Below, one piece after another: positions 21,162 through 56,892 of a stretch of 64,000 bases of DNA; position 1 is the first letter of the stretch; every line of letters starts with the position of its first letter. The notes below the pieces were generated by a model that was given only the letters and a program-made list of their open reading frames with translations, searched no databases and was not told the DNA's origin. The translations under genes were made by a program, and so were the position numbers. Source of the DNA: Pirellulaceae bacterium (GTDB lineage: Bacteria; Planctomycetota; Planctomycetia; Pirellulales; Pirellulaceae); assembly GCA_041749955.1 (NCBI GenBank), contig JBGTAI010000146.1, positions 7,751 to 71,750 on the forward strand. Reading direction: 5' to 3'.

Positions 21162-21187
21162 ATTTCGTAATCAGTTCAAGTTCGTAA

Positions 21188-28900: not shown

Positions 28901-30538
28901 ATCACTCTCTACAGCCGTGTCAACCGTTGGATCGACAGTGACTGCGACCGAGGAAGCACCAGCTGGAATCGTTACGCTCGTGGAAGTACCGGTGAAGTCC
29001 GTTCCGGCGGTAGCCGTACCAGTCGTCGTATAATTGATCGTTAAAGGATCAGTCGTTGCGCCGGTTCTTGAGAACGTGTAAACCAAATTAGTAGCGCCAT
29101 CTTCAAGCACGCTGGCTGGCGAGACATTCACACTAACGGTTGGAACTTGGCTGACGCCAATTGCCGAGATTGTGAACGATCCAGTCGATGCATTGATCAA
29201 GACATCATCTTGAACGAGCGTTGTACCAGCACCACCTGGATACAACAAAATGGCTTCAACGTCTTCAGCCGGATTCAGCGAAATACTGAGGTTGCTGACT
29301 GGAGCGGTGAATCGCACGGGAATGCTGAATGCATCCACGGGCTCAACCAGAAAGTCGAACTGAGACTGGCCCGTGATACCGTCAGCAACCACGCGTCCCA
29401 GGACACCGACCTCGTTGAACGCGTCCGTCGTTCCATTTGGGTCAAACGTTCCAAAGCTACGTGAGTTGTAGAACTCGCCGTTCGTGTTCCCAGCATCATC
29501 AGTGAAATTCCGGCTGCGAACATCAAAGGACGACGGTAGCGCAGCACCGTTGATTGATCCGTCAGGATTAAATGGTGCAGCAGTTCGAACATCAACCGGG
29601 TCTGTCGTTCCACCAATCACAGGGTTAGGCAAATTCAATCCGCCCAAGTTCAAATCGCGATAGGCGATCTGGAGAATCGGTTCAGCAGGTGGATCACCAG
29701 CAGCCACCGTACGTGTCAGATTCGTGACGCGAAATTGTGACGAGTTATATCCAAGTTGAATCAGAGCTTGAGAAACCTCGAAAACACCACGGTTAAAAAA
29801 GTTGTTCCGCGTGATCGTTACTGGTGCAGGAATTGTTGTTTGACCCGGCAAAGGAGCATCTAAGCCGAATGTGAACGATCCCGATTGGCCAGACACATTG
29901 AACGCAGAATCAAACGTCAATGTCTGCAGCTCAGTCAACACAGGCTGAAGAACGCCAGACTGACTCAATGTGATGTCGGTTGAAATTTGGAACGCACCTA
30001 AAGCCTGGCTATCGGGCGTACGCAAGTCAGCGTAGGAAAGCTCCAAGTAGAAAATGTCGCCGACATTAACCGTGTAATCTCGGATACCTGCGTTGGTTCC
30101 AGTTGGCGTGATGGTTGTATCGGTGGAGCTTCTTGGCTCCAAGAACAGCTCAACCTTTTCGCCAACTCCTTCGCCCAGGTTCATCGCATTGATGACGGCT
30201 AAGGCATCGGCAGCTGTAACAACGTGGTCAGCATTCACATCGACCATCGCAGAAACGCCCATTCCCTGAGTGATCCTTGTTCCGCTTCCATGCAGATTCA
30301 AGAAGTTGATCACCGCCAATGCGTCATTCGCAGTAATTGCACGGTTTTGGTCAACGTCCTCCGCGTCCAAATAATTGTGCGCCAATGCAATATCGCCAGC
30401 GAGCAACTGTCGCTTCTCCAAAGGCTCGCCCCGAAGTCGTCGCGACTTGTCTGAGCGGCTTTTTTGGCTGTTTCTGGTTCGATTTGAATCGGAACTCAGC
30501 CATCCAGAGCGACGAAGTAATTGGCGCAGATTTTTCAT
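25991..30538 (-). CDS. Large extracellular protein: basic LExR leader, N-terminal dockerin pair, 5x Calx-beta, cadherin/VCBS-like region, SdrD-B/CarboxypepD_reg-like domain
   Basis: 1515-aa uninterrupted ORF. Motifs: RRLRGEPLEKRQLLAG; DVDQNRAITANDALAVINFLN and DVNADHVVTAADALAVINAMN; five repeats of the type VSPASV.EDGATNLVYTFTRTGATTSALT.NY...GTATAGTDFTG; GINDAPVATND; DGSYEFTNLPPGTYTVSYV. Confidence 0.9.
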   Translation of the reverse strand: MKNLRQLLRRSGWLSSDSNRTRNSQKSRSDKSRRLRGEPLEKRQLLAGDIALAHNYLDAEDVDQNRAITANDALAVINFLNLHGSGTRITQGMGVSAMVDVNADHVVTAADALAVINAMNLGEGVGEKVELFLEPRSSTDTTITPTGTNAGIRDYTVNVGDIFYLELSYADLRTPDSQALGAFQISTDITLSQSGVLQPVLTELQTLTFDSAFNVSGQSGSFTFGLDAPLPGQTTIPAPVTITRNNFFNRGVFEVSQALIQLGYNSSQFRVTNLTRTVAAGDPPAEPILQIAYRDLNLGGLNLPNPVIGGTTDPVDVRTAAPFNPDGSINGAALPSSFDVRSRNFTDDAGNTNGEFYNSRSFGTFDPNGTTDAFNEVGVLGRVVADGITGQSQFDFLVEPVDAFSIPVRFTAPVSNLSISLNPAEDVEAILLYPGGAGTTLVQDDVLINASTGSFTISAIGVSQVPTVSVNVSPASVLEDGATNLVYTFSRTGATTDPLTINYTTTGTATAGTDFTGTSTSVTIPAGASSVAVTVDPTVDTAVESDETVVLAITANAAVYSVSTTAGSATGTITDDDAVVALPTVSVAVSPASVLEDGATNLVYTFTRTGATTSALTINYAVTGTATAGTDFTGTSTSVVIPAGASSATVTVDPTADVAVEGDETVVLTISANTAVYTVSGTAGVATGTITDDEGLPTISVAVSPISVTEDGATNLVYTFTRTGATTSALTVNYATSGTASATSDFTGTGTSVVIPAGSASATVTVDPTADTTVEPDETVVLTITANAGVYAVSGTAGSATGTISNDDVALPSVSVAVSPASVTEDGAANLVYTFTRTGATTSALTVNYTTSGTATAGTDFTGTSTSVVIPVGASSVTVTVNPTADTVVESDETVVLTISPNATVYTVGTSAATGTITNDDFGPSTISVAVSPSSVVENGTPNLVYTFTRTGGSNASALTVNYSVSGTATAGTDYTGTSTSVVFAAGAATATVTVDPTADTLTEGNETVVLTITPNSGVYVVSSTAAAATGTITDPPVTNQPPVVSGPVTRTVTEDDAATTVNLLANASDPNTGDVLAVSNLTLTSGNAAGIVQNGNSLSITPSAYNSLTGGQSAVVVYGYNVTDGNGGSTPATATITITGINDAPVATNDPNLMAFAGATTRLNVLVNDNAGGGETQTLTVTAATLTSGNATVAPTADGTAVNLTAPAGAIGTVTFTYTIRDAGGATATATATVNVQDFNPSTIRGAAFFDTIMNLSAVIGGATPVRDGIKSADETALGGVAIRLESAASANAINQTISRTVFTELDGSYEFTNLPPGTYTVSYVIPETIVYGRDIAGTAGSDGTPNGSMVITIAEPGGSTRSGINFTAYGTRSTGAAGSGIAYLDLLTTSYLASNAEILAMSNGGREGGTVSLSATGTQDFVSMGEGFTDVKFAEFTLNATRDAALLTIIGQDNVARTARLDSNHFVASADGRSVRFFGGQEDFTFVNSDAALIQQEFANFRNLVDQIMSSIT
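27434..29143 (-). repeat. Five tandem in-frame Calx-beta domain repeats (aa 466-1035, period about 112-117 aa / about 345 nt)
   Basis: Repeat starts are at aa 466, 583, 697, 812 and 924 (PTVSV/PTISV/PSVSV/PSTISV). By eye the nucleotide copies are diverged, not identical. Confidence 0.85.
30176..30358 (-). other. Dockerin-type repeat pair (aa 61-121 of the 1515-aa protein)
   Basis: Two 22-aa EF-hand-like repeats of the form DVxxxxxxTAxDALAVINxxN. Confidence 0.7.
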
Positions 30539-30805
30539 CTGGGGTCTCGGAAAGATGAAGTCGGGTGAGGGTGTACTTATTGCCGAGGACGCCCAGAGGC
30601 ATTCACGGACTTGAAAACAAGGTCCGAACGAAAATTCAGACGAACAGACCAGCTGGGAAACTCGGAATAGTCGCCCTATCTTATCTCAAACGCCTCGTTT
30701 ATCAACGATTTCGGAAAAAACGTTTTTCGAGGCCATTTGGGGCGGTCTTTAGACCTCGTTTTCGCTTGAAGGTTCCGTATTTTCCGCATTTAGCACCAAA
30801 AAGGC

Positions 30806-33412
30806 TTAAGTCGATAAATCCGGCGCCAACGGTTGTCCAATCTTTTTATGGTTCAAGGAACCAATTTGTTTTGCGGATCGGCTACCACGCCAGTCCGTTT
30901 CGCCATATCGGTCAGGATGAATTGACCCGGTATCCCCAACAGCCAAATTCTTAAAGGAGCCACTCTTAAGCCTCCATCTGGTTGTATCGGGTGTTGGCTC
31001 CACGTTACTTGCAGACCCAAAGCCATAAACGTCAGGGTCACCCCAACCCGCCAAGACAACGTCACGTGACGGATTAGTTGTGGGGGTCATCGAAAGTACG
31101 GAACTCGCATAAGCGGCACCACTTCCGAACTGCTCGCCGCCAATCTGGCCGCCGCCTGAAGCGTCGTTCAGATTCAGCCAATTGACAACGGTGAGCGCAT
31201 CGAGCGCGCTAACACGACCATCGTTATTTACATCGACAAGCGAGGTCGGAACTTCATCGTGACGGATAACGCGAGATTCATGCAGATTCAAGTCGAGAAT
31301 CACACCGAGGGCATCAGCAGCGGTGATGGAACCGTCTCGGTTAACGTCTTCGGCTAGTTCGGTATTGTGAAACGGACTGTCCACGCTCCGTATGGAAATC
31401 GGCGTTAGAACAGTGGCAACACCGGTAACATCGAAGGAGATGGTCGAAAACTCAGGAGCCTGAGTGACGTTCTCAGTGACGATCGATAACTGATACGTTC
31501 CCAACGGAAGGTTGGGAAACCGAAAAGTGCCCTCAGCACCCGTTGCTACAGTCGCTGTTGCGCCGAAACTAATTTCGCTAATCGCAATCCGCGATCCGAT
31601 ATGACCAAAAACTTTAACGGACGAAATTCGTCCCTCTGGGTCGGAAATGCTTAAACGCGTGGATTCGCCTGGAAGTAACCGATCCGAGGTCACTCGTTGG
31701 ATCAAGTCTCCATTCAGGTCGTAAGCTTCGATTCTTCCATAACTGATTGGTGATAACCCTGAAACTTGCAGCCCTACGTTTCCGAGCGGGGAATCGAAAT
31801 CTGCAACAAAAGCAAGCGATTCAGTAAAGGCATCGGTGAATTCACCGGTTCGATTGTCGAAACCTTTGAATACGCGTCTTCCATCAAGCGACGATGACGC
31901 GAAAGAGAAAATAGGGGTCCGCAATCCTTGTTGACTGACGGAAGCAAGGGTTGCACCACTGGTGTTTTGAATCTCAACATCCCCGAATTCGGCTGCGTTG
32001 ATGTTGCCGCCAATTAACGGTGATCCATCGGCAGAAGCCAGCTTCAACGTCACGCCCGCAAGTATGCTTTCCACGGCATCACGAAAATCGTCAACGTTTG
32101 CGTCGAGGTAGGTAAAGCCAAGTATGCTAGCGGACGTCATGGCTGGTGTTGTTGGCGTGCCTTCAAGCACTTCACTGGTGATTCCCGTCACAGCATCAAT
32201 CACTCGCCAACGTATCGAGTTGAACTCTTGCACAGAAACAGACACGTCGAACGAGTCGACGACTTGGGCATCCGGTGACTCGGCGACCTGCCAAGGACCA
32301 TTGTCCAAACTGTATTCGATGCGGCTGATGCGATTGAGCGTGATATCGCTCTGATTACCAGCTGAATTTTGATTAATGAACGGTACGGCGGAAGCACTTC
32401 CACGCAAGTGATACGTCGATGTGATGGGATCAAAAGATCCAATCGCTTGCAAATCCAGCGGCACGTCGGCGAGGTCAAAAACTCCATCACCATCACTGTC
32501 TTGCCAACCGAGCATCGCAAGTGTTGACGCCGGACTCGTGTGAGCCGCATACGCTTCTTGCAACGGACCGCCGCCGCGCATGATACTGATTTCTTGCGTA
32601 AATCCAGGCGTCGGGTTGTCAGCCGCATTCGTATTTTGCGTATCGTAATAGCCACGACGCTCATCCCAGGAACTGCCGCCCGGATACTCGTCACGCGCCC
32701 AGAAAATGTGGCCTGTTTCGTGCGTGATGGTCGATGCGGGTCGAGTCGAGGGCATCACAATGAACTGACCACCGGCATAGGCAAACGCACCGGAGAACGC
32801 ACCGCCACTGGCGAATGTACCATCAGGCTCGTCTGACGCGTCGGCTACAAAGATCGTATAGGCCCAATCGGCGTTGTATTTCTCTCGTTGTGCATTGTTG
32901 AATAGATAAACGGCATCCTGGAAGCCTCGAACACCTTCGAGTCCCTGGGCATCAAGAAAGTCTCGTCCATAAAGCAAGAAACCCTCGCTACTACGATCGA
33001 TCGGCTCGTACTGCGTTTCGAATGGAGTTGTCGCAAACGAGGAATCAATGAAAAATTCGAGCTCGTGTCGATCCGTAATTTGGGCCAGTGTTTCGGACCA
33101 CCAATCGGTCGCCTCGACAACTTTGACCAAGAAATCGTCAATCTCCGACGCGGACCAATTTTGAGTATTGTCGTCCAGCGACCCGTCACTCTCAAAGAGA
33201 ACCGGCGTCACCACAACTCGCCCGAGCAAAAACTCCCCTGTATCGGTGGGAGTAACACCAAGCGGATTAGCCGCCATCATCGCACGTGATTCCAGACACT
33301 CAGTAAACAGTCGTCGAGAACGACGATTGCGAGTCGCGAGCCGTTTTGAAAAGCATCGAAACATGCGTCGAGGTATTTTCCGGATTAAGGAAAGGTAGCG
33401 TGTATCCATCAT
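30806..33412 (-). CDS. Secreted zinc metallopeptidase-like protein (HExxH...DEY) with C-terminal dockerin pair
   Basis: ITHETGHIFWARDEY (HETGH at 32708-32722), GTFRFPNLPLGTYQL, DVNRDGSITAADALGVILDLN and DVNNDGRVSALDALTVVNWLN. The leader is RRSRRLFTECLESRAMMAA. I prefer the ATG at 33412; the track's 33448 start is a TTG. Confidence 0.85.
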   Translation of the reverse strand: MMDTRYLSLIRKIPRRMFRCFSKRLATRNRRSRRLFTECLESRAMMAANPLGVTPTDTGEFLLGRVVVTPVLFESDGSLDDNTQNWSASEIDDFLVKVVEATDWWSETLAQITDRHELEFFIDSSFATTPFETQYEPIDRSSEGFLLYGRDFLDAQGLEGVRGFQDAVYLFNNAQREKYNADWAYTIFVADASDEPDGTFASGGAFSGAFAYAGGQFIVMPSTRPASTITHETGHIFWARDEYPGGSSWDERRGYYDTQNTNAADNPTPGFTQEISIMRGGGPLQEAYAAHTSPASTLAMLGWQDSDGDGVFDLADVPLDLQAIGSFDPITSTYHLRGSASAVPFINQNSAGNQSDITLNRISRIEYSLDNGPWQVAESPDAQVVDSFDVSVSVQEFNSIRWRVIDAVTGITSEVLEGTPTTPAMTSASILGFTYLDANVDDFRDAVESILAGVTLKLASADGSPLIGGNINAAEFGDVEIQNTSGATLASVSQQGLRTPIFSFASSSLDGRRVFKGFDNRTGEFTDAFTESLAFVADFDSPLGNVGLQVSGLSPISYGRIEAYDLNGDLIQRVTSDRLLPGESTRLSISDPEGRISSVKVFGHIGSRIAISEISFGATATVATGAEGTFRFPNLPLGTYQLSIVTENVTQAPEFSTISFDVTGVATVLTPISIRSVDSPFHNTELAEDVNRDGSITAADALGVILDLNLHESRVIRHDEVPTSLVDVNNDGRVSALDALTVVNWLNLNDASGGGQIGGEQFGSGAAYASSVLSMTPTTNPSRDVVLAGWGDPDVYGFGSASNVEPTPDTTRWRLKSGSFKNLAVGDTGSIHPDRYGETDWRGSRSAKQIGSLNHKKIGQPLAPDLST
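31169..31348 (-). other. Dockerin-type repeat pair of the metallopeptidase-like protein
   Basis: aa 701-760 (numbered from 33448). Two DVNxDGxxxAxDAL repeats. Confidence 0.7.
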
Positions 33413-33578
33413 CGGTTGACGGAAGTCGCACAATCCTAAGACTCCCAAACTAGTGAGATGTTTCCCGTAATCGGCAAAAACTTGCCAAACGGTAACGCCG
33501 CCTAGTTATCTTACGTCCCGCGACGCAACGGTGACGGAAAAATCACCGCTGCCGAAGTCAGAATGTCGTGCCGAAGCT

Positions 33579-36500
33579 CTACATTTGCGAGAAAATTGCA
33601 TCGAACGGATTGAGCTCTGAATCGCTGGAATCCGCCCCTAAACGAGCACTTGCATTATCCTCAGCGATCAAATCCACAATCGAATCAAGTTCGATAATGG
33701 CTCGAGGGTCAAAGACGCTCGATTGATCAATTGCCTTTTTCGGCGCGCTCTCACTTGGAAGCGACACTTCCTCTCGCAGCAAACCATCGGCGCCCGATGA
33801 ACCATTGATCAGTGCGTCGCCGATGAGCGTTGCTTGTGACGCAAGCACACCGCTTGCTGTGCGGACAAAACCAGTCGTGAGCAACTCACCTTCACCTGAG
33901 GCACCATTCGCGTCAGCCTGATTCAAAATCTGGATCACCGCCAACGCATCGGCCGCCGAAATTTGGCCGTCACCATTGACGTCCGGGAATACCGGCAAGA
34001 CGAACCCAGGAGGCAACGGATCGCTTAGATTGATGGTCCTCGCATTGGGATCAACCGACTGGTACCGATTCAAGACGTTAATGATCTGGAGTGCATCAAG
34101 CGGCGTCGATGCACCACTATTATTGACGTCACCCGGTCTCACCGGATTCGTAAACGGATTGTTCGTGATAAACAACGAATAATCTTCTACTTCACCGCTG
34201 GCGGCGTCACCAGTTGGCCCAAGCAAGACAGCAAGACCATTAGCATCAAAAACCGGTTCGCTCAATCGGAACCTAGCGTATATCTCACCTGTGGCGGCAT
34301 CGGCGGGCACGGTTACGGGAACAATATTCACTCCGGTCGAAAGCGGAATACGTCCAGTACCAGCTGATCCATATCGAATCACTTCATTGGCATCGAACAA
34401 CTTGTTGCCGTTCCAATCGAACCAGGCGTCAACGTAGAACGCACGACCAGCCACACTATTCACATTAATCGTCAGCTGGCTTTGGAATCCGGCACGCATG
34501 GAAACAGGAATGCCGATTCCATCGTCTTCATCTGCGTTGGGCACCAATGCGTCAGCATCCGGCGTTACCGTCGCACCAAGAGTGAATGTCGGATCGATTG
34601 CGTGTCGTGGACGTAAACCAGATGCAAGCGACTGATACGGTGCTGGCGCGTCTCCGAAGTCGAAACCATTTCCGATGAAGATCGTCAACTCGGTCTTACC
34701 GTTGGACTGGTTGCTTTGCAAACGATTACCAACCAAGTCAGCAACTACCGCGGAACCAACCGCTCCCACACCGCTTATGCCATTCGTGCCTTCAACAAAA
34801 ATGCGATCATTGATCAACGACGTCGTCACGCCTGCAAGACTGAGAGATTCAATAACGCTTTGAATTGAAGCGGCAACACTTGCACGGCTCTGGTCGATCT
34901 GAATCGTGATCGGAACCGTCGCAACTTCGCCCGCAATGCCAACTTGTGTCAACACACTTGCTGTAACGTCAACGGAGTAATTCGCATCTCCTCCGAGGAA
35001 TACCCTACCAAACCCGACATTGGATGGGCTCAAACCCAGACCTGTACCACCCACCGCACGAACGATCTCATTTGCAATGTCGTCAAGAGTCGACACCGCA
35101 CTGAAGCGAATTGGGATTGCTCCCGTCGTTGAAATCACATTGTCGTTATCAAACTCAAACGTGAATGCTGTTCTGGCTCCACGACGAACCACGAAGACTT
35201 GACCATCAACAATCGTGTCAGCTGGCCGAGCACCATCGGCTGGAATCTGAAGGCCGAAACCAATTGCCGTTCCGACGGCTCCGGATACCGCAGCAAGCGT
35301 ACTGCTTGAAGTTACTGAGGCGAGTGGATTCGCTCCGAGCAACTGTATATTCGAGCCATTGGTAACGGCAGTCAAAGTTAAGCCGCCAGTTGCATTAATC
35401 GCCGCTGCGATGCTTGCCCCGATCTCTTCAACCGTTGGCAACCCGGAAACGTCCACTGGAATACTATCGACACCGGTAATTCCGTTATCATCCAGCTCGT
35501 AAATCACCGTATTGACGCCATCGAAAACCTCAAGAGTCAATCCATCCGCTGCACCGACCGTTTGCAGAATCGTCGAAAGTGCAATCGTAATCCCAGTTTC
35601 ATACTCAAACGTTGTTGTTACACCGGACGAATCGATGACACTCAATCGCGTTCCATCGAAGTAACCAGATCCGTCCGAAGCAGAGATAACTGCATCGCTT
35701 GAATCGATCAACCGAATTACATAGGTTGCCTCGCGAGCGAAGACGCCCGCGATCGGTGTCAATCGAATGACATTCGTACTTGGGTTATATCCGAATCGAT
35801 AGTCGATCCCTTCAACCAAAGGCACATTGTCTTTGAACAACAAGACGGAGCCGCTCGTTACGGTTCGATCGTCGATCCCAGTCCCGGGCGTTACGTCCGC
35901 TGGAGCAAGACCATCAAGTAGCTGAATTTCAAATGCTCTTGGTGCCTCACCAAAAACGCTCACGACACCCGCGCTCAAACCAAGATCCGGTGCGGTTGGT
36001 GAAAGAAGAACGGCTCGAGGTCCAAAGAGGTCACCACGATCCGAGGCACCACGATCTTTGAATACTCGTTCACCCAAACCACTTGGCGTTTCAACATTCG
36101 GATCGTCGATTCGAAGCTGACCGTTAACGTCCAAACGTGGAGCGAGGATCGGCGAGGTCGGCAAACCTAACGGATTCTTGACTGCGGTCAAACTCGATCG
36201 GTCTTCCACCGAGTCAATTGAACTATCGATAATTCGAGAACCAGCGGACGGCGAAAACACAAGTTCAGCTGGTGCAATGAATACCGACTCACTGCTCGTT
36301 AACTGCTGAGCAAACTGGCCAATAGAAGCCCCTGCAGGAACATCCAATGTGTTGCGATAAAACGCGTTTCCACCAACGATCGGCAAAGTGCTTCCCACCG
36401 GCAATACGATACCGACATCCGAATTAGCAACAACATTATTGAGGAGTGCTGGGGCCGCTTGGCCAACAACATTAATTCCGTTACCTCCGGCCGTGTACCG

Positions 36501-42500: not shown

Positions 42501-45500
42501 TTGGCCAATCACCTGGATGCCATTTACCGCGTAGCGAATATCGCTCAAACGCACTTGCGTGCCCGGCGACTCGTCGGCTTCCTGCAACCGGATCTGCAAC
42601 TCGTACCTTCCAGATGTCAAACCGTCGCGGACTCGGCTCGCATCGACAATTGCACCAAAATTGGTCGAATTCGTCGTATTACTGCTACGCACACGAACGT
42701 GATAGATATTGCGAGTGCCCGCTTCCCCTGGCAACACGATACGCATACCAGCGTCTTTCGCGTTCGATGAATAGGCGTCCTGCAGTTGCGAAGTAAACGT
42801 GATCGCCGCTACCGTTGGATTCGGAATTGTAATTCCGAGAACACCAGTCGAATCGACACGCACTAACGGAGCTTGCCGACCGACAAAGAAGTCTGCGTCA
42901 AACCGCAACTCAATTACAAAGTCATCGCCCGCACGCAGTACCACTGCTGAATTATTGGGATCCGTCACGCGTGCGTCGCGACGTTGTAGCGTCGCAGTAA
43001 CAGGACCAAGTTCGGCTCCGAATTGAGTCTCGAGTGCTGTCTCAATCGCCAGAGCAGGATCCGCCAAGAAGGTATCCACTCCGATGGTTATCGTATCCAA
43101 AGACCCAGCGATCGAAAGGGTCAGAACTCCGCCCGTTGAATCAACGATCGTCTCGTTAATTGTGATGCGTTGCCCTTGAAGCCGCTCCGCGACAACCGAT
43201 AGCGGTTGCGCAATGTCAACATCGACACCTGCAACTGCGGGGAAGTTTGCATTCGGATAAAGTCCCAACGAACTCGATTCACCAGCAAGTGAATCGTTGG
43301 ACGCAGCGAGAACGCGACCGTTCACATCGATCAACTCAACAATTGAATCCAATCGATTGCTCGTGCGGTCGATGTCCAACCACACTTCCGTACCGCTTTC
43401 GCCGATGAACGAATAAACGTCAATGTCATCATTGGTCGCGATCACGCCATCGACAATGAAACCAAGACGACGGTTCTCGTCACCGCTCTGCTGGTTTGGT
43501 GCAAGTTCGCCTAAGAACTCAGATTGAGTCGGAATCGAGTTTGTATCAACGACACTCGTACGAGTCGGCTCCTGCTCAGTAAACGCAGCAACATTACGAT
43601 CGTCGGCGCCTTCGCGAATCGTGACACCGTTCCAATTGCCACCCGTCACCGAATTTGGGACCGTTCCAAAAGTCTCAGCGATTACCTCCAAATTCGTAGT
43701 GATCGTTGCCGACGTTGCGGTAGGATCAATCAGCCAAGCCAATGCAGACGTTAGAATACCAGGACCGTAATTAGGGTTGGGAAACCTAGCGTCATTCAGC
43801 AGCGGGACACCAGCAGCGATGGTTCCATTCGGGACAAACGGCAGATTAAACACCGGCGGCGTAATGAGCTGGGGGAAATCATCCGCAATCCAACCTTCAT
43901 AGGATGCACCATTCAGCCCTGGGCCACCTGTAAACGCACCATACTGGCGGAAGCCGATTTCTTCTGGCCCATCCAAAACTGTTATTCGGAAATCATCAGC
44001 TCCAGGTGTACCCTCCGTGAAAAGGATGTCACCCGAGTCCGTTCCAATGATAGGATCGTAGTAGTTGATAAAGCGTAAGTTACCGAGCGGCTGATCGCTG
44101 CTAAAGGTGACCTCCGAGACTAAATCTGGTCGTCCGTCTTGGAAAGACTGTGTCATCACCCAATTGATTGTGCCGTTTGCTCCCGCGAAGGAACCTGTGC
44201 TGACAACACGGTCGTCGGACACAAGTGTCGGCTGTTGCAAAATCGTTGTTGTGTCCAATCCTACTGCAGCGCCGTCTGCACCAACATCAATAAAGAACCC
44301 ATAATCAAACAACGAAGTTTGGTTCGTGAAGAGTTGTGTCAATCCTTGAACGGTTGTCGTGGCTTGCTGGAGAACACCACCAGGTCCGGGTGAAAAAGAG
44401 AATGAGCCTGCAATCAGTGGATCAACGTCGTTATCAATCAAGGTACCGTTGTTAACTTCTGGTCCGATCGGAAACAATGGACCTTGGCTGCCCGCAAGAT
44501 CGCCACCAACAATTCCGTCATTGTTCGTGTCCAGCTGAGGACGGCCATCGAGTGTAAATCCAGCTCCCGCAAAATCGTCTGCAAGCGTAGTGAGGACAAC
44601 AGGAAAATCGGGGTGACCGATAATCTGAAGTGAGCCGCCAATTCGGTCGGCGATGTCGCGGAATTGATCACCGGCACCCAACAGCGAACCACCAACAACG
44701 ATACCTGCGGTTTCACCTGGTGCATTTTCAAATTTGACAACCAAACTTCCGCGACCGTCGCTTCGGAGTCGCAACCCTCCGTACACGAACTGATTCGGAA
44801 TTTCGATCGACTCGGTGACCACGTGGACAATATCCACATCGTCCCAAACGCCCGCCGTCGCGAGTTGGCCACCGCGAACTTGTAATCCGTTGATGCCATT
44901 GTTGGTGAGCGAGTTACCCAAAATGAATGGGCCGGAGTTTCCAAACACGTCGGTTCGATCGATCAGCCCGGTTGAGCGTCCTGGATCAGTCACTTCAACC
45001 GATGAGAGTGAGTTCACATCGAAGGACAATGCTGGGCCAACTCCGCCAATGAAGTTGTTGTCGATCACGACTGGCGTCGACGCACGAACAAACACGGTTC
45101 CGGAAGCGTTATCACCACGGCCTACACGAGTATCGTTGGTGGCCCCTCGGCCATCCGCATTAAATTCGAGCCTGCTATTGGCAATACGAAGCGTGCCTTG
45201 GTGCAATTCAACCGCGTTAAATGACGCGAAGCCGCCTTCGATACGAGTCGTTCCACCACCGCCAGCCACGACGACATTGTCTAGGCTTGCTGCCGAACCG
45301 ACACCAATGTAGATGCCGCCCCAATCACCACGGAGATCTTCGGGTGCGGGAGCTGCTTCAACACCGACATTATTGGTGTCGAATGTTCCGCCGCCACCGT
45401 AGCGTTGATCTTCGAGACTGGTGAAAATAATCGGATTTGACGGTGAACCTTCGGCGAGCAAATTAGCTCCGAAACGAGCCTCAATCCGAGCACCGTCAAT

Positions 45501-48500
45501 TTTCAAAACAGTGCCTGGATCAATCGTCAAACTGGAGTCGAGTCGACTTCGGAGCGAAGCGCCTGTGCTTGAAAGCGGTGTGGTTCCAACAGCGAGTCGA
45601 TCGACAAAACTCGTGCTACTCGCATTAAGCTGAGCGACCAACAGGAATTGGCCGGGCAAACCATTGGTATCAACAGTCGCTCGATACAATCTTCGCGATA
45701 CGAATCCACTACCCGACGCTGGAGTAGGCAACTGAGAAAGTTGAACTCCTCCAACCGTAGTCAACGTGACTGGCAAAGTGGCCTGACTCGACGCAGATTC
45801 GATACCTGATCCATCAACGTTGGTGATGCGGTAGACGTATGTGCCGACAGGAACACTTCCAGCCGTTGTCACGGCTGAACGAACGAGCAAAGACGATGGC
45901 GCGGAGGATTGGATGATCGGTCCACCAGGCGTACCGTCAATGACCAAATTTTCAGTCAATATGTGCGGAATGTCAGTATCGTCAAACCGTGCCGTCGTGC
46001 CGATCGTTTCGAGTTGATTACCAGTTCGGGTGAGCACGCGAATGAACAAACCATTCAGGCTATTATCAATGACGGTATTGCCGTGAATTTCAGGACCGAC
46101 ACGGTCATAATCTGGAGTGAACGCGCCGCCCGCTTGGAAATTGGCTTCTGTGAATCGTGTTTCTGCGAACGTGTCTGGCGAAGCAGACATTGCGGCGTCC
46201 GCACTCAACGAGATTTGTGAGTTGATAATCGTTGGGCGTGTGACGGCCATGTCAATTGGCGAGATAGGAACCTGGCGTCCACCAATCGAAACCGCACCGC
46301 CACCGTAACGCATATCAGCGAACTGGATGTGGTTGAGGAAGACGCCTTCGTCTTCGCGGTTGCGTCGAAGCTCATCGGCAGTATCCAAGTCACCGCGGAA
46401 ATCGATCCCGCCCCAGTCACCAGGCTGCGGCGTCGGAGTGAAGGCTGGTGCGTTGCCAATACCAACCGTGCGATCATTGACACTTGTAAAAATAACGCTT
46501 CCGGGGATAAGTGCATTCGTAGCGTCACGAGCTGGCAAACCCGTTGAAGTAATAATCGTAGGTGTACCAAGCACTTGCAGCGCACTGTCGCTGTGATCCA
46601 CCAATGGTGACGTGCTTCCCACGCCCAGCCGAGCCCGGCTAAATTTCAAAATGGCGCCGGAGTCGATCACCATTCGAACGCCCTGAGGCAAGTCGATCGT
46701 CGAACCATCTTCCAACGGAAGGCCGTTATTAGCGAATCCGATGTTATAGGCGAGGTTGTCGACTAAGGTTTCGATACGATTGTCTGCCCCACCATTTCCA
46801 ACCACACGAATCGTATCACCAGGCCGCGCTGCGGCGATCGCTAAATCGATTTCACGATAGGGATTGGCGACCGTACCGATTTGTCCGCTGGACACAGCGC
46901 TCGCAGCCTTATCGACATAGAGCGTATTGTTTGCATCTGCAGGCACGAACCAAAAATCAAAGACACCGCCGGGGCGTCCGTCACCATCACCGTCCAATGC
47001 AACGCCCGTCGTGTCACGCAATACATTTCCGACGCTGGGGCGGAAATCCAATCGCAACTCATATTCACCTTCGCTGCGACCACCGAAGCCAGTACCGCTA
47101 ATCGACGGATCATAGCTTGTGTTGCCTTTCGCGCTGACACCGACGACATAGGTGCCTGCTTCAACCTGAACGTCAATCAATGAGTCATTGCTGAAATAGT
47201 CATCGTTGATCGCCAGTTCAGTGCTGCTTCCATCAGCATTCAAGCGATAGAGCCGTAGCGTTGTATCAAGCAAGCTCGGCGCACCAAGTCGCTCAGCAAT
47301 CGTTTCAATCGCCAACCGCCCCGAGGAATCCAGCGTGAACTTATAAAGGTCCACGTCGATGCTATCAGGTCGGAACAGATATTGGCCATTAACAATATCG
47401 GCAGCACTCGGGTACGACGGTTCACTTTCCGTTCCAGGAGTAAAGATGAACGCAGTGCTTTGCGTAACCGGCTGGGTCAAATCATCTGCATATCCGTAGC
47501 CGAGCAACTGGCCCACGACAAACATGGCTCCGCGAAAGAACTCGCCACCGAATTGGTCATCAATCGACTCATCAAAATCTTGGAAGTCCAAAACACCCAA
47601 ATCTTGAACTCCGTCGCCATCGCGGTCACGAAGCGCAACAGCAATGTTATTGGGATCGTTCGGATTGTTGGGGTTGAACGGCCCACTATTAACAGCAGTC
47701 TCACCTGCTTCGACGGTTCCGTACAAATCGCCCACCGCGATTGAGAAGAAGGCATCGCTTGTGAACTCACCTTCGACTTCAACAAATTGCACACCGAGGT
47801 ACTCGCTGTACAGTTGCAACACTTCTCGCACACGCTGGCGTTGCTGCTGGCTAATGACGTTAAAATAAGTCGTGTCAGCAATCACGCCAGGACGACTCGG
47901 GTCATCTCCAAGCCATGAAGACGCAAAGTTGTATTGAATAACCGAAATGCCATCGATCACATCCGCGCCACCACGCACGTAGTCCAACGGCACCGTCCGA
48001 GTGAGTCGCGATGGATCGTCGGGGCGGATGTTGCGAGTACCAGCCAAATCAGGCCCCGGAAGGTCCAATCCAAATGGCGTCGGATTAAAAATCTCACTGC
48101 TCAGTCTCGCAGACTGAGTCGCCGAGGCACCAATGTTCCACTGCGTATTGAGATCAAATGCGGTACTGAAACTGTCACCAGGCTCAATTGGGTTACTTGG
48201 GTTCGCGTTCAGATTTACCAACGTCGGCGGGGCAGGCAAGTTCTCGGTTGTACCGACTCTCAAACGTGCCGAACCCGTCAAGAATTGCCCCGGTGCGTTC
48301 GGGTTTGGAATTCGCGAAAGCGGGCGACCAAAGTCGAGAGTCGCCACATTGGTGATGCTGTTGTAAGTAACGCTCGTCGGTCTCAAACCGGGTGTATTCA
48401 GACGAGTAAAGTCGTCAAGATTTGTCGCCGTGTCGTTCGTCATAATCAGCTGATAGAAATCAGGATTCTGAGCTAACGTGGGATCCAAATCGTCGTCGTT

Positions 48501-49823
48501 GAAGTGGACTTCGATCTTACCAACATCTGGCGAAATTGAACCATTGGCATTACGACGAATCGGCTCTGGGACGACGGCAACGACTTGTGGCCCGAGGTTC
48601 AAGTTGAACTGACGCGTGAAGCTCACTCCGTCTTGGAAAAGCTCACCATTCACATTGCTGAGCGCCAACGGCCCACTACCCAAAATGTCGATCTGGTAGG
48701 TGTCGTCCGGTAGCGGCTGTGCAAATCGGAAAACAACCTCTCGAGGCGAGTCCCCCAAACCGATGAACCCTGGCTCAACGACAATATCGCCGACACCACT
48801 TAGAGTCAGCGGCGAGTAGTTTGATGGCAATTCATTGCCGATTACCGTATTCGCGCTGCCCACTTCGACAGCAGCACTAATCAAGCTCGATGCATCTGGA
48901 TTGTTTTGGATCGCCGTCAAGAAATCAGTAACGGTGGACTCGTTTCCAGGTGAACTGTTGAGCTGAACACGAATCGTCTTGTCAGTGACAACAACGACTG
49001 GATTAGCGACACCACCAAAATTGCGCTGCTCAAACGTGAGCTGAATGCCACGACCGTCTGCACCAGGCAATTGGGACGTCAAACGAACACGCACTTGTCC
49101 GCCTGTACCAAAGTCGGTCAATGCTTCTGCGGCGTTCGCTCCTTGAAGCGTTAACGTTGTTCCCGAAGTCACCGTTGTCCCGATGACTGCTTGCGACGCG
49201 CCACTGACCTGAATGACTTCGATGAGCGAGTTTGCCGCAGCATTGTTTGCTACCGCTGAAAGCAAGTCGGCTACGCGCGTCGGATTCTGGCTTGTCGGAT
49301 TGACGCTTCTATTGGCGCGATTGACATCGATGTTGACCGTACGTCCGGAAACCGTGATGCGTGCGGACGGATCATTTCGGTCGGACGTTGTAAAGACAAC
49401 CTGAATGCCGTTGCCGATCGTTCCAGACTGCTTTGCTCGGAACTCCAGCAATACTTGTCCACTGGTACCAAGATCCGTCGTTGCTGATGCTGACTCAAAC
49501 GCGTTATCGTCGCCCGCACGTGTGATACGAATCGCCGATAGAGTTGCTTCGTCAAGCGTCGTATCATCGTCAAAGCGAAACACCAACTCATTCGGCGCAA
49601 CGTTGAGTACGGTCACACCAGTGGCGTTGAGATTAGGCTCAAACAGTAACTGACCTTCATTGGGTTGAATACCAATGAGCTGTGGCCCAGCCATGAGGTG
49701 CCGCGTTTCGAGCGACTCCAAAAGCGAACGACGATCTTGACGTCGCTTCTTTCTCAATCGATCACGCAGGCCCCATAGGCTTGAACTGAATTTGGACTGC
49801 GATTGAGGTTTGCGGAAGGTCAT
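33579..49823 (-). CDS. Giant extracellular multidomain protein (5414 aa): LExR leader, Ig-like modules, degenerate metzincin-like module, PPC-like domains, parallel beta-helix regions, repeated FEF-type modules, GEVED domain, C-terminal dockerin pair
   Basis: Single uninterrupted 16,245-nt ORF with an ATG start. Motifs are listed in the sub-features. PPC-like signatures: DVDLYKFTLDSSG, DIDVYSFIGESG, DVDWYRFTIS. Beta-helix-like repeats: NTRFLFNTNYGVDISH, SNIFAYNGNGGIQI. Confidence 0.9.
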   Translation of the reverse strand: MTFRKPQSQSKFSSSLWGLRDRLRKKRRQDRRSLLESLETRHLMAGPQLIGIQPNEGQLLFEPNLNATGVTVLNVAPNELVFRFDDDTTLDEATLSAIRITRAGDDNAFESASATTDLGTSGQVLLEFRAKQSGTIGNGIQVVFTTSDRNDPSARITVSGRTVNIDVNRANRSVNPTSQNPTRVADLLSAVANNAAANSLIEVIQVSGASQAVIGTTVTSGTTLTLQGANAAEALTDFGTGGQVRVRLTSQLPGADGRGIQLTFEQRNFGGVANPVVVVTDKTIRVQLNSSPGNESTVTDFLTAIQNNPDASSLISAAVEVGSANTVIGNELPSNYSPLTLSGVGDIVVEPGFIGLGDSPREVVFRFAQPLPDDTYQIDILGSGPLALSNVNGELFQDGVSFTRQFNLNLGPQVVAVVPEPIRRNANGSISPDVGKIEVHFNDDDLDPTLAQNPDFYQLIMTNDTATNLDDFTRLNTPGLRPTSVTYNSITNVATLDFGRPLSRIPNPNAPGQFLTGSARLRVGTTENLPAPPTLVNLNANPSNPIEPGDSFSTAFDLNTQWNIGASATQSARLSSEIFNPTPFGLDLPGPDLAGTRNIRPDDPSRLTRTVPLDYVRGGADVIDGISVIQYNFASSWLGDDPSRPGVIADTTYFNVISQQQRQRVREVLQLYSEYLGVQFVEVEGEFTSDAFFSIAVGDLYGTVEAGETAVNSGPFNPNNPNDPNNIAVALRDRDGDGVQDLGVLDFQDFDESIDDQFGGEFFRGAMFVVGQLLGYGYADDLTQPVTQSTAFIFTPGTESEPSYPSAADIVNGQYLFRPDSIDVDLYKFTLDSSGRLAIETIAERLGAPSLLDTTLRLYRLNADGSSTELAINDDYFSNDSLIDVQVEAGTYVVGVSAKGNTSYDPSISGTGFGGRSEGEYELRLDFRPSVGNVLRDTTGVALDGDGDGRPGGVFDFWFVPADANNTLYVDKAASAVSSGQIGTVANPYREIDLAIAAARPGDTIRVVGNGGADNRIETLVDNLAYNIGFANNGLPLEDGSTIDLPQGVRMVIDSGAILKFSRARLGVGSTSPLVDHSDSALQVLGTPTIITSTGLPARDATNALIPGSVIFTSVNDRTVGIGNAPAFTPTPQPGDWGGIDFRGDLDTADELRRNREDEGVFLNHIQFADMRYGGGAVSIGGRQVPISPIDMAVTRPTIINSQISLSADAAMSASPDTFAETRFTEANFQAGGAFTPDYDRVGPEIHGNTVIDNSLNGLFIRVLTRTGNQLETIGTTARFDDTDIPHILTENLVIDGTPGGPIIQSSAPSSLLVRSAVTTAGSVPVGTYVYRITNVDGSGIESASSQATLPVTLTTVGGVQLSQLPTPASGSGFVSRRLYRATVDTNGLPGQFLLVAQLNASSTSFVDRLAVGTTPLSSTGASLRSRLDSSLTIDPGTVLKIDGARIEARFGANLLAEGSPSNPIIFTSLEDQRYGGGGTFDTNNVGVEAAPAPEDLRGDWGGIYIGVGSAASLDNVVVAGGGGTTRIEGGFASFNAVELHQGTLRIANSRLEFNADGRGATNDTRVGRGDNASGTVFVRASTPVVIDNNFIGGVGPALSFDVNSLSSVEVTDPGRSTGLIDRTDVFGNSGPFILGNSLTNNGINGLQVRGGQLATAGVWDDVDIVHVVTESIEIPNQFVYGGLRLRSDGRGSLVVKFENAPGETAGIVVGGSLLGAGDQFRDIADRIGGSLQIIGHPDFPVVLTTLADDFAGAGFTLDGRPQLDTNNDGIVGGDLAGSQGPLFPIGPEVNNGTLIDNDVDPLIAGSFSFSPGPGGVLQQATTTVQGLTQLFTNQTSLFDYGFFIDVGADGAAVGLDTTTILQQPTLVSDDRVVSTGSFAGANGTINWVMTQSFQDGRPDLVSEVTFSSDQPLGNLRFINYYDPIIGTDSGDILFTEGTPGADDFRITVLDGPEEIGFRQYGAFTGGPGLNGASYEGWIADDFPQLITPPVFNLPFVPNGTIAAGVPLLNDARFPNPNYGPGILTSALAWLIDPTATSATITTNLEVIAETFGTVPNSVTGGNWNGVTIREGADDRNVAAFTEQEPTRTSVVDTNSIPTQSEFLGELAPNQQSGDENRRLGFIVDGVIATNDDIDVYSFIGESGTEVWLDIDRTSNRLDSIVELIDVNGRVLAASNDSLAGESSSLGLYPNANFPAVAGVDVDIAQPLSVVAERLQGQRITINETIVDSTGGVLTLSIAGSLDTITIGVDTFLADPALAIETALETQFGAELGPVTATLQRRDARVTDPNNSAVVLRAGDDFVIELRFDADFFVGRQAPLVRVDSTGVLGITIPNPTVAAITFTSQLQDAYSSNAKDAGMRIVLPGEAGTRNIYHVRVRSSNTTNSTNFGAIVDASRVRDGLTSGRYELQIRLQEADESPGTQVRLSDIRYAVNGIQVIGQPLHSPLLGEDYETAAPNDSLATAQPLGFFGVANDANAIAVGPLQSDQLAKSFAGSLNSLTDVDWYRFTISYDNITRDNAALYLSTVFDLDYADNFARADMALYVFNEAGQLVLVGGDSNVADDQSGQAGSNDSTDLSRGSAGTQDPYIGAAELREGTYFVAVANQQQVPLPLDQFFNAGSLNPLLRLEPIDSVRRIAEDRIGSSGGGTASDPTIPLLFDDNSIIPYSFDDQLLYVNTGSSLFIVNPFTGENYGSVGTFSNGEEIEEIAFRSNGELFSYSGFGNRQRSDNNWFYYQIDTGTAALSAPLSTGANINTFSAVFDAVNNVFTVGVGNTGLDVEATTIAAFDGIERGFFVANRPFDLINSNAGSQYTTNILYQFVPQSGIANGPQNVFLTRLNGAGTSVQEVGQIFTGTQQTLSTQLGIKAPTVTNAAGQRVAGLSDEDSFTLTDNNNNSVTFEFNSGLTLTADGLNPILDGQTVTIDNTVFEFNTGERLQLSPAQPVGTLTEGSTVRVVGLDGQVQTFEFVRTGTARLGNVAIQTLNNVGQPLTGDQVAASLAANINLLMTGINARSVLDQVVFTGPVTPQLTVTGAGISTLGDNQITTPGAVGVNVSETISAELLVSRLAAAIRSQGISVVSDGNQLALPSSQTVVVNPAVGGGLSVTGQAGLANPGSIEILIFPGDTEAVVAARMAAAIEANGGGTLSANVEPSGKSLSIVGGFISNVFSPNNSLVAGGIPSGGAVGGTVTGAELVTENGVTSLYAITNTGDLFRVSAGELRTVRDGSVGTYVRTATDLIGLNFTSLRSGPVSYNDGELRETLFGMTANGDIYAFNTAGELQPIFAGGRSMISTGIGGARGLDFSTLSYNLFHVTGQRGADPGHGINATGTGSRGVAADGSTTTVLGGSSLAFTYEANAFFGNYPSSAEQPVNFTGNGVVSNPRVDGTLVEDHYNFPGGAKGVVQSNAFSLEGFAAADEPVLYFNYFLEADGTELDSGGNIAGRDALRVYVVTQDGAQHLVSSNKTARGGGAFDDEFDDPTPVGQYNDNIDVDVQQLFTSTNTWRQARVPLGEFAGMPGLSLRVEFSTAGTTQTGSASLRTKAGDQLVEGQSFVIGGETFSIDFAPTVSLPTGAQLANLYSDPNATATITVDGQQYVLDDGRRVIGNGQISIPLLGGLPAGTSLAALSASEIAAIVTDAIRISPPTNPVVSGLLFSDAQDADPNAGGGRNDRTFEAIALPYSGGNMTFVGVGQLGNDRNFGDLDDPRILALDVVNTNDVDMLRVEVVAGTVLKVDLSTVGSIPIQGTIRFFDEFGIEIPASVLDTNSATLQVPSSGTVFIGISGQPNTAYDPRFGTNQSPGQIGKYQASVAVNLPLSIQADSNAIELGGLANVQASPSSLFSISGQSNVLGIPVPVSRFMSANEVAGALRQVVADRFTNGNVSVLPIDGASLRLPLLTIDDVGPFVDESERWGDQFASGVRGGAIANDFEGVYLDDFIIGFAERGEIATGSNVVDTPFVQDLRPQFPSPADPTSSLNTGSYQVEIRDASEYLNSQTASAFRTFDTNDRLADSRSVVVRGADQIRDGQTFEITDGRATVVFEFDLTESGTGVTPGNVAVPFTLSALVPGSQRINATTGLPIAGTGVVRPQTAAEVAASVVAAVNRSDVASVLAVSALLASGVDSDTDARINLAGDIVVVDDSGAFESIDRSTRRGDTNRDRDGQGVILIENTRFLFNTNYGVDISHDVTANVAGVDTNSILRYPRNLVELNSESIIPGVVVQSNIFAYNGNGGIQIAGLQAAGETQSDPIPFERIVNNTIVGGSITAGFTAPSETFQGVFFPGGAISFADAVVSYTPNATGRPPASIFQNATTALGAPDRLGRGSEPVDGQFTVSLGLGGSLVVEFTDNLLTGSGDSRPDLIVFETGDVESVQVQVSRDGITFFTVGILGGLTNQIDLDAAGFGPQDRFAFVRLTDLRQGSTTSSSLGADIDAIGALTTVPVDRYTAGGNGINVVGQAAPALLNNVVANSDVGIVLPVGSTLPIVGGNAFYRNTLDVPAGASIGQFAQQLTSSESVFIAPAELVFSPSAGSRIIDSSIDSVEDRSSLTAVKNPLGLPTSPILAPRLDVNGQLRIDDPNVETPSGLGERVFKDRGASDRGDLFGPRAVLLSPTAPDLGLSAGVVSVFGEAPRAFEIQLLDGLAPADVTPGTGIDDRTVTSGSVLLFKDNVPLVEGIDYRFGYNPSTNVIRLTPIAGVFAREATYVIRLIDSSDAVISASDGSGYFDGTRLSVIDSSGVTTTFEYETGITIALSTILQTVGAADGLTLEVFDGVNTVIYELDDNGITGVDSIPVDVSGLPTVEEIGASIAAAINATGGLTLTAVTNGSNIQLLGANPLASVTSSSTLAAVSGAVGTAIGFGLQIPADGARPADTIVDGQVFVVRRGARTAFTFEFDNDNVISTTGAIPIRFSAVSTLDDIANEIVRAVGGTGLGLSPSNVGFGRVFLGGDANYSVDVTASVLTQVGIAGEVATVPITIQIDQSRASVAASIQSVIESLSLAGVTTSLINDRIFVEGTNGISGVGAVGSAVVADLVGNRLQSNQSNGKTELTIFIGNGFDFGDAPAPYQSLASGLRPRHAIDPTFTLGATVTPDADALVPNADEDDGIGIPVSMRAGFQSQLTINVNSVAGRAFYVDAWFDWNGNKLFDANEVIRYGSAGTGRIPLSTGVNIVPVTVPADAATGEIYARFRLSEPVFDANGLAVLLGPTGDAASGEVEDYSLFITNNPFTNPVRPGDVNNSGASTPLDALQIINVLNRYQSVDPNARTINLSDPLPPGFVLPVFPDVNGDGQISAADALAVIQILNQADANGASGEGELLTTGFVRTASGVLASQATLIGDALINGSSGADGLLREEVSLPSESAPKKAIDQSSVFDPRAIIELDSIVDLIAEDNASARLGADSSDSELNPFDAIFSQM
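33921..34130 (-). other. Dockerin-type repeat pair of the giant protein (aa 5232-5301)
   Basis: DVNNSGASTPLDALQIINVLN and DVNGDGQISAADALAVIQILN. Confidence 0.75.
34167..34664 (-). other. GEVED-type domain (aa ~5054-5219)
   Basis: FDFGDAPAPYQS ... EDDGI ... YVDAWFDWNGN ... ARFRLS ... SGEVEDYSLFI. Confidence 0.6.
34785..35657 (-). repeat. Cluster of three FEF-type modules (aa ~4723-5013). Further copies are scattered through the protein.
   Basis: DGTRLSVIDSSGVTTTFEYE / DGLTLEVFDGVNTVIYELDD...TVEEIGASIAAAINATG / DGQVFVVRRGARTAFTFEFDND...TLDDIANEIVRAVGGTG / SRASVAASIQSVIESL. Confidence 0.45.
47109..47381 (-). other. Pre-peptidase C-terminal (PPC)-like domain (aa ~815-905)
   Basis: DSIDVDLYKFTLDSSGRLAIE...LRLYRLNADGSSTELAINDDYFSNDSLIDVQVEAGTYVVGV. 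Confidence 0.5.
47424..48026 (-). other. Metzincin-like module with the zinc-binding motif apparently degenerated (aa ~600-800)
   Basis: VREVLQLYSEYLGVQFVEVEGEF..FFSIAVGDL resembles the N-part of M10/serralysin-type domains. FVVGQLLGYGY (47490-47522) aligns with HExxHxxGxxH, with G/L/G/G kept but H, E, H and H replaced by F, V, Q and Y. Confidence 0.3.
48789..49478 (-). repeat. Two tandem repeats of about 115 aa near the N-terminus of the giant protein (aa ~116-345)
   Basis: TDLGTSGQVLLEFRAKQSG..GNGIQVVFT...RTVNIDVN...RVADLLSAVANNAAANSLIEV aligns with TDFGTGGQVRVRLTSQLPGADGRGIQLTFE...KTIRVQLN...TVTDFLTAIQNNPDASSLISA. Confidence 0.6.
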
Positions 49824-56573: not shown

Positions 56574-56625
56574 CTCGCACGCATCCAACGACTCGCTCGA
56601 TAAACCCGTTGCAAGGAAAGTTACT

Positions 56626-56892
56626 TTGATCGACTCAGCAGCAGCTCTTGATCTTTGTCGCACGACGCTAATCGCGGCAGTGATACTCGCTGCGCCGTTG
56701 CTGCTCGCCGGAATGGCTGCCGGATTGATCGTCGGATTGCTGCAAGCGCTCACTCAAGTCCAAGACCAAACCGTTTCGTTCGTGCCCAAGGTCATGGCGA
56801 TGGCGGCGGTTATGGTGGCTTGCTTGCCTTGGTTGATGTCGCGGATGGTTGAATTCACCCGCACCGTGTTCGAGAACGCCGGGTCACCGTAA
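56626..56892 (+). CDS. fliQ: Flagellar export apparatus protein FliQ
   Basis: 88 aa with two TM segments, LIVGLLQALTQVQDQTVSFVPK motif, and a TTG start preceded by AAGGAAAG. Confidence 0.88.
   Translation: MIDSAAALDLCRTTLIAAVILAAPLLLAGMAAGLIVGLLQALTQVQDQTVSFVPKVMAMAAVMVACLPWLMSRMVEFTRTVFENAGSP

Follow-up and report, generated by a model that had tools for sequence, protein, structure and literature searches.

A probable Planc_extracel (PF07595) leader at the N-termini of three adjacent dockerin-bearing proteins of a Pirellulaceae bacterium

A short N-terminal motif of planctomycete proteins, together with the proposal that it acts as an export signal, goes back to Studholme, Fuerst & Bateman 2004 (PMID 15251216), as that work is cited in PMC8567305, PMC3343278 and PMC1569441. 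In Pfam, it is represented by PF07595 (Planc_extracel, 'Planctomycete extracellular'), a 20-position hidden Markov model with a gathering cutoff of 25.5 bits. Planc_extracel has been listed among signal-peptide classes, beside YSIRK, TAT and ESPR (PMC10952558), N-terminal export signal peptides have been mentioned together with Calx-beta and cadherin domains (PMC3343278), and a proteomics study from 2021 treated the motif as a planctomycete-specific cell-surface signal (PMC8567305). In that study, Tuwongella immobilis was found to have 52 genes with an LxLExLExRxxP variant, of which 20 products were detected, 8 of them exclusively in the envelope fraction soluble in sodium dodecyl sulfate (SDS), and 8 of its 10 longest proteins (4016-10566 amino acids, aa) carry the motif (PMC8567305). 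Here, we describe three consecutive minus-strand genes, P1, P2 and P3, whose translations all start with a leader of this type. They lie in a stretch of 64,000 nucleotides from a Pirellulaceae bacterium (assembly GCA_041749955.1, contig JBGTAI010000146.1, positions 7,751 to 71,750 of the forward strand), referred to below as the window. As both the motif and the export hypothesis were already known (2004, with the proteomic follow-up of 2021), the observation itself is a rediscovery.

An earlier sequence-only reading of the window had drawn attention to a basic leader shared by three neighbouring genes, and our translations reproduce the sequences that it quoted. The proteins, defined as open reading frames (ORFs), and their leaders are:

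25991-30538, minus strand: P1, 1515 aa; leader, Dockerin_1 (60-120), five Calx-beta domains, Cadherin_5, Big_9 and SdrD_B (ORF and Pfam)
30395-30538, minus strand: P1 leader, residues 1-48; basic N-region followed by the core RRLRGEPLEKRQLLAG (residues 33-48, nt 30395-30442)
30806-33364, minus strand, most likely start (ORF as first listed 30806-33448): P2, 852 aa; leader, HEMGH zinc-metallopeptidase-like domain, beta domains and Dockerin_1
33269-33364, minus strand: P2 leader MFRCFSKRLATRNRRSRRLFTECLESRAMMAA; core SRRLFTECLESRAMMAA (nt 33269-33319, residues 16-32 with the revised start)
33579-49823, minus strand: P3, 5414 aa; leader, PPC, GEVED and a C-terminal Dockerin_1 (ORF and Pfam)
49686-49823, minus strand: P3 leader, residues 1-46; core RRSLLESLETRHLMAG (residues 31-46, nt 49686-49733)

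The N-terminal translations read ...KSRRLRGEPLEKRQLLAGDI in P1, ...NRRSRRLFTECLESRAMMAANP in P2 and ...KKRRQDRRSLLESLETRHLMAGPQ in P3, and the three cores, of 16-17 residues each, have the pattern RR[L/S]xxExLExRx[LM][LM]A[GA] in common. More generally, the leader consists of a Met, a region of ~15-30 residues conserved in composition alone (Arg-rich, the first 50 residues having a net charge of ~+6 to +9) and the conserved core [RK][RK][L]x[L][EQ]xLExRx[LM][LM][AST], directly after which the acidic, Cys-poor mature protein begins. In P1-P3, the first 50 residues hold 13-14 Lys or Arg per leader. A strict regular expression for the core has three matches among 1291 six-frame segments, all of them in P1-P3; shuffles indicate that composition alone predicts ~2-2.5 matches, so that the count is not enriched and the significance derives from position, together with the Pfam E-values, and not from number. 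For three neighbouring genes each to have a match in their first 50 residues, the probability is ~4e-9.

When N-terminal fragments of 80 residues are compared with PF07595, P1 scores 28.7 bits (E-value 9e-7), P2 24.2 bits (2.5e-5) and P3 26.0 bits (7e-6). The P1 and P3 fragments thus lie above the gathering cutoff and that of P2 falls 1.3 bits short of it; scored inside the full-length proteins, all three remain below (24.3, 20.8 and 20.1 bits, respectively). Several P2 and P3 orthologues have a precomputed PF07595 match. No other signal-type Pfam family matches the three N-termini: TAT_signal, ESPR, YSIRK and N_methyl give no match on them at E-values up to 10, and NCBIfam and PHROGs hold no model for the leader. 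The consensus of 20 aligned leaders from the window and its orthologues, RRLxxExLExRxLLAA, agrees with the published RRLxxExLExRxLLA. The cores lie N-terminally, at the residues given above, in a neighbourhood of planctomycete type (DUF1501, PSCyt2/PSD1 and sulfatase genes) and ahead of extracellular cargo domains. Taken together, the window leaders and PF07595 have the same consensus, N-terminal position, phylum and kinds of cargo (Calx-beta, cadherin, giant proteins), and nothing essential differs between them. We judge it reasonably likely that the shared N-terminus is the Planc_extracel leader and a Planctomycetota-specific targeting tag. The sequence-only reading had proposed a distinct tag that resembles neither Sec nor twin-arginine translocation (Tat) signals, which fits the match to a family read in the literature as an export or cell-surface signal.

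Other short N-terminal motifs differ. ESPR and YSIRK likewise are short, conserved and direct a subset of exported proteins, but they accompany a normal hydrophobic signal peptide, whereas the Planc_extracel leader replaces one. Type IV prepilins have G|F-T-L-x-E followed by a hydrophobic helix, and the leaders have neither an N_methyl match nor such a helix. Substrates of repeats-in-toxin (RTX) type I secretion carry GGxGxD repeats, and neither these repeats nor HemolysinCabind was found in P1, P2 or P3.

With a Sec type I signal, the leader shares the N-terminal position, a positive n-region, a length of ~32-48 residues, small end residues and a place before extracellular domains or a propeptide; it differs in having no h-region and, in its place, a conserved charged core with a sequence-specific motif. 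In the first 60 residues of P1 and P3, the best 12-residue Kyte-Doolittle window does not exceed 1.25, and the Sec or lipoprotein signals of four other window proteins (8179, 19843-20526, 50377 and 58865) score 2.0-2.9. The sole hydrophobic patch of P2 follows the motif and lies inside the folded domain. Within the first 80 residues of P1-P3, the longest run of A/V/L/I/M/F/W/C/G/S/T/P, a set that leaves out charged residues and N/Q/H/Y, is 6-8 residues. The claim of the sequence-only reading that the three N-termini have no Sec or Tat h-region is borne out by these two measures. On average, the leader cores score below zero for hydrophobicity, and shuffled versions of them have hydrophobic moments just as high (at 100 and 170 degrees); in an AlphaFold2 model of P2, residues 1-38 have a predicted local distance difference test score (pLDDT) below 50 and no secondary structure. 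Because the core is neither hydrophobic nor amphipathic, the leader must be recognized by its sequence.

An atypical Sec signal, in which the basic run is an over-long n-region, LxLExLExRxLLA (12-14 residues) serves as the h-region in SecYEG and L-x-A or L-A-A forms a signal peptidase I (SPase I) site at -3 and -1, has to be considered at this point, and we regard it as rather unlikely. The geometry equals that of a Sec signal (positive n-region, ~14-residue core, small end residue, ~32 residues in total), no dedicated machinery was found in the window or near 36 other carriers, and the cargo is of the unfolded-export type, being Cys-free, acidic and made of Ca-binding domains. Against this, the core has one or two Arg besides two conserved Glu, the hydrophobicity and amphipathicity values just given do not suit an h-region, the same genome uses ordinary hydrophobic Sec and lipoprotein signals, the invariants L-E-x-L-E-x-R are foreign to Sec signals, and the small residue at the end is not kept throughout the phylum. 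As to an SPase I site, L-L-A or L-A-A(G) would suit the small residues expected at -3 and -1; the next residue is variable, and a Gemmataceae variant ends in Pro. With Tat signals (S/T-R-R-x-F-L-K plus an h-region), the leader shares an Arg pair with Leu after it, often found immediately upstream of the core; this pair occurs in ~40-50% of 40 leaders (R in 19/40 and 15/40 at the two positions) and is present in P1-P3, but charged residues follow it, TAT_signal does not match, and giant multi-domain cargo is implausible for Tat.

The leaders could also be thought of as an annotation artefact, with the true starts downstream, as in the deposited 824-aa P2 call, and the 'leader' being untranslated 5' sequence. 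Many public gene calls do begin after or within the motif: the deposited P2 call (P0001, 824 aa) begins MMAANPLG and so omits the leader, ~1/4 of the P2-orthologue gene calls are clipped likewise, and in the P2 orthologue of Rubripirellula lacrimiformis the leader MPRRCSPKRRQPVRRGRLEKLESRRMMAA lies just upstream of the annotated start. However, when the window is compared with the orthologous locus L001, third codon positions account for 25 of 45 (P1) and 25 of 41 (P2) nucleotide differences in the leader, and 19 synonymous codon changes stand against 13 (P1) and 11 (P2) non-synonymous ones. This codon-position pattern and the excess of synonymous changes show that the leader is translated and under purifying selection. 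The amino-acid motif is kept while the DNA varies, and most orthologues of all three families have an open frame and a Met at a conserved spacing, which leaves an artefact scarcely credible.

The same comparisons bear on the start of P2, which the sequence-only reading had placed at the ATG at 33412. The nearest P2 orthologues begin MFRC(L)FSKRL..., equivalent to Met17 of the P2 ORF as first listed, and the sequence upstream of Met17 is not conserved; the start is thus most likely the ATG at 33364, giving a predicted protein of 852 aa. The P2-orthologue ORF of L001, as listed, starts at the ATG equivalent to Met17. In 67 non-redundant P2-orthologue leaders, all with the called start 18 residues or more ahead of the motif, Met and LE are most often 23 residues apart (22/67). 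For P1 and P3, an upstream extension is impossible.

The three genes are conserved across Pirellulaceae as a cluster, which is syntenic in R. lacrimiformis CP036525.1 and in a metagenome-assembled genome (MAG) (loci L001 1-16965 and L002 1-17300). The order is a giant with PPC, GEVED and dockerin domains, then a dockerin protein of ~860 aa and then a 1400-1500-aa protein with Calx-beta, cadherin and dockerin domains. The syntenic P3-type giants are 5406 and 5865 aa long, P1 has syntenic orthologues at both loci, and named P2 orthologues come from Novipirellula, Rubripirellula and Rhodopirellula. The leader is kept in orthologues of P1, P2 and P3; among homologous P3 N-termini, 39/44 keep it directly before a conserved (D/Q)LIGIQPNEG. 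In P2 and P3 homologues, indels between leader and mature domain fall right after LLA(A/G/V), which marks a module boundary. Queried with mature P2, an exhaustive HMMER search retrieved 1574 cluster representatives. Among the best 126 of these whose alignment reaches the N-border of the domain, the strict motif is present in 90; a further 21 are truncated gene calls, and 15 have mostly degenerate motif variants. In distant relatives, the P2 domain begins 60-867 residues into the protein, with the leader still at the extreme N-terminus. Judged from these alignments, the leader behaves as an independent N-terminal module, and the P2 domain family seems to be confined to organisms that use it.

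To define the taxonomic range, one genome per GTDB species was scanned with a DNA pattern for LExLExRxLLA, which gave at least 120 matches, 120 of them listed; a match was called leader-like if it lay 8-70 codons from a start, with an Arg-rich stretch before it and a long ORF after it. Among the matches listed, 34/46 in Planctomycetota were leader-like versus 6/74 of the others (Fisher P 6e-14). The planctomycete ones span Pirellulales, Planctomycetales, Gemmatales, Isosphaerales and Phycisphaerae, and the ORFs that follow them reach up to >2376 codons, extending to the contig end; one more leader-like example comes from a Brocadiaceae MAG, where the ORF ends after 70 codons at the edge of the fetched 8-kb stretch. 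The 6 leader-like matches listed outside the Planctomycetota include 3 nuoF antisense artefacts and 1 from an unclassified bacterium. Most of the non-planctomycete pattern matches (~30 among those listed) were discarded as lying in the antisense frame of nuoF, opposite its conserved block for binding flavin mononucleotide (FMN). As a separate observation, nuoF antisense gives long shadow ORFs in high-GC genomes, reading ...LALEALEQRxLLAADVGA (L003, L010, L015-L017, L021, L026, L030, L032, L042, L059, L060 and others). The sequence-only reading had also mentioned similar N-termini on verrucomicrobial giant proteins; none of the 3 Verrucomicrobiota/Kiritimatiellota matches among those listed is leader-like, a small sample that does not support such an occurrence. 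Outside the fixed core, the only features are an upstream enrichment in Arg (25-45% R from -23 to -3) and, after LLA, a slight bias towards A/V/T/G, beyond which conservation ends.

The kind of cargo is informative as well. The domains after the three leaders are of extracellular type in Pfam (Calx-beta, Cadherin_5, Big_9, SdrD_B, PPC, GEVED and Dockerin_1), as had been claimed before, and the proteins are strongly acidic, with a net charge after residue 50 of -94 in P1 and -321 in P3, and of -60 in mature P2. P1 and P3 contain no Cys at all, and their ~-6 net charge per 100 residues is opposite to that of their +9 leaders. No transmembrane-like segment was found anywhere along P1, P2 or P3. 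At another locus (L063), a prepro-type M36 fungalysin has the leader at residues 20-39, an FTP propeptide at 118-168, the M36 catalytic domain at 308-695 and then PPC, so that the leader sits in the 'pre' (signal-peptide) position and may by analogy have a role in export. Further carriers include PKD proteins and a cadherin/GEVED/Big_9/dockerin protein. An animal-type haem peroxidase (An_peroxidase, E 2e-148; L085 4390-6855, minus strand) with a Planc_extracel leader and an N-terminal dockerin was also observed; its source, a MAG labelled 'bacterium', is probably an unclassified planctomycete. The leader is thus a translated, selected, modular and phylum-specific N-terminal tag, found on extracellular-type cargo at the position of a signal peptide.

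P2 itself contains H215-E216-x-x-H219, invariant across 44 orthologues, with AHEMGH...DEY as the invariant family motif. Its AlphaFold2 model has a mean pLDDT of 74, and Foldseek matches it best to the pappalysins PAPP-A and PAPP-A2 (E 5e-7 to 3e-6), with TM-scores that are low as the proteins are multi-domain. A weak NCBIfam M6-domain match agrees with a metallopeptidase reading, and the family has no Pfam or PDB sequence match. On the strength of motif and model, P2 is probably a member of an undescribed family of dockerin-bearing zinc metallopeptidases. All three proteins carry a type I dockerin, and a cohesin was not detected within the window; such a three-dockerin cluster recalls the 'planctosome' idea (PMC6461901). 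After export, P1, P2 and P3 probably dock on the surface via their type I dockerins, P3 probably being an adhesin-like giant.

A different role has to be weighed for cargo of this kind, in which poly-Arg and motif form an N-terminal retention or anchor module, similar to that of LapA, that holds adhesin-like giants in the envelope, with export specified elsewhere in the protein. Carriers are indeed enriched in envelope fractions and were not reported as free secreted proteins (PMC8567305), many of them are giant adhesin-like proteins, and so strong a positive charge could attach the protein to anionic polymers of the envelope. However, P1-P3 have no other recognizable export signal such as RTX repeats or a transmembrane segment, no C-terminal sorting domain is detectable in any of them with Pfam, and carriers have no C-terminus in common. 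The leader is also present on small enzymes and on the prepro-peptidase, exactly at the 'pre' place, and we consider an anchor improbable.

How a targeting tag of this type might work can be outlined from its parts. By the positive-inside rule, the basic tail of the leader would remain on the cytoplasmic side. The invariant L-E-x-L-E-x-R core would be read by a specific protein, a receptor or leader peptidase, and not by its hydrophobicity, and this protein would pass the cargo, still unfolded, to a translocon whose genes lie in another part of the genome; more speculatively, the leader may be removed at or just after LLA. We tentatively put forward, as a possibility that is more doubtful than the identity of the leader itself, a Sec- and Tat-independent route that is common to the Planctomycetota, has a dedicated receptor or peptidase, handles large, acidic, Cys-free cargo and has its translocon away from the substrates. 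If true, such a route would represent a novel way of sorting proteins in bacteria.

A leader for a one-step ATP-binding cassette (ABC) exporter, of type I or similar to a peptidase-containing ABC transporter (PCAT), and cut by an associated leader peptidase, is another alternative. Double-glycine leaders have the consensus LSxxELxxIxGG, and with a cut after A-[AG] the leaders would match it at L(-12), E(-8) and L(-4) and in the small residues of positions -2 and -1. They are also non-hydrophobic, with conserved Leu/Glu spacing, small end residues in the window proteins and disorder in the model. However, double-glycine leaders have a near-invariant Gly at -1, an adjacent C39-ABC exporter and no strongly basic N-region, whereas the leader here ends in A-G or A-A after a basic run and its -1 residue is variable in the wider sample of 40 leaders. 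Neither a C39 peptidase nor an ABC exporter was found in the window or among 99 neighbouring ORFs of other carriers, and PCAT substrates are small peptides, to which a cargo of 5000 residues bears little resemblance. Such an exporter is therefore a very remote candidate.

The only export genes in the window itself are those of the flagellar apparatus:

55449-58805, plus strand: FliP, FliR and FlhB (flagellar export), 5.6 kb from the giant-gene cluster

A flagellar type III route was rejected, as a conserved motif and giant cargo do not fit it and FliP/FliR/FlhB are not syntenic in L001 and L002. With no other candidate found, the proposal of the sequence-only reading that the pathway is not encoded in the window stands.

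Several points weigh against a dedicated targeting route, and we collect them here. The residue after LLA varies (A 11, V 6, T 5 and G 3 of 40 leaders) and the motif variant of Tuwongella (Gemmataceae) ends in P (PMC8567305), which together argue against a single conserved cleavage site; cleavage after A-G/A-A, as suggested by the sequence-only reading, is a candidate only. No hydrophobic signal occurs among the best 126 P2-domain representatives, so that there is no Sec-bearing homologue to demonstrate interchangeability, and the interchangeability of leader and signal peptide is based on a single M36 architecture plus published domain lists. The absence of an h-region is derived from hydrophobicity windows, a proxy for SignalP or DeepTMHMM. 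In T. immobilis, 12 of the 20 detected carriers were not exclusive to the SDS fraction (PMC8567305), and SDS fractionation alone is no proof of surface exposure. Beside 36 other carriers, 99 ORFs include no recurrent secretion or leader-peptidase gene, and with no co-localized partner gene the dedicated receptor is purely inferred. Finally, we found no study in the literature of the pathway, translocation or removal of the leader. The earlier statement that the motif lacks experimental characterization thus holds for pathway and processing, but not in general, as fractionation proteomics exists (PMC8567305).

Among the 99 ORFs, the commonest neighbours are Ser/Thr kinases (5) and extracytoplasmic function (ECF) sigma factors (3), which are probably genomic background; other Ig/cadherin proteins occur too. 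The remaining genes of the window encode DUF1501 and PSCyt2/PSD1 proteins, an ECF sigma factor, ROK and SDR proteins, pyruvate kinase, a tetratricopeptide repeat (TPR) lipoprotein, a class II aminoacyl-tRNA synthetase, a sulfatase and LeuA. At 15603-21790 (minus strand), the DUF1501 and PSCyt2/PSD1 pair adjoins two unannotated small ORFs and the ECF sigma factor, and the DUF1501 protein (15603-16907) opens with an RRR run and continues with uncharged hydrophobic residues, a putative ordinary Tat-type signal.

The question of mechanism is about twenty years old, and the window offers clean examples of the leader and no new handle on the machinery. What is added here is the corrected start of P2, the routine clipping of leaders in gene calls, the conserved three-gene dockerin cluster and statistics on modularity and taxonomic range, together with negative results on co-localized machinery and on verrucomicrobial occurrence. 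In a planctomycete genome, dozens of proteins bear the leader, most of the largest among them, and these carriers (adhesin-like giants, peptidases, peroxidases and dockerin proteins) shape particle attachment and digestion by abundant aquatic bacteria. Because the logic of signal-peptide prediction misses the leader and gene callers clip it, the surface proteomes of Planctomycetota are systematically under-predicted.

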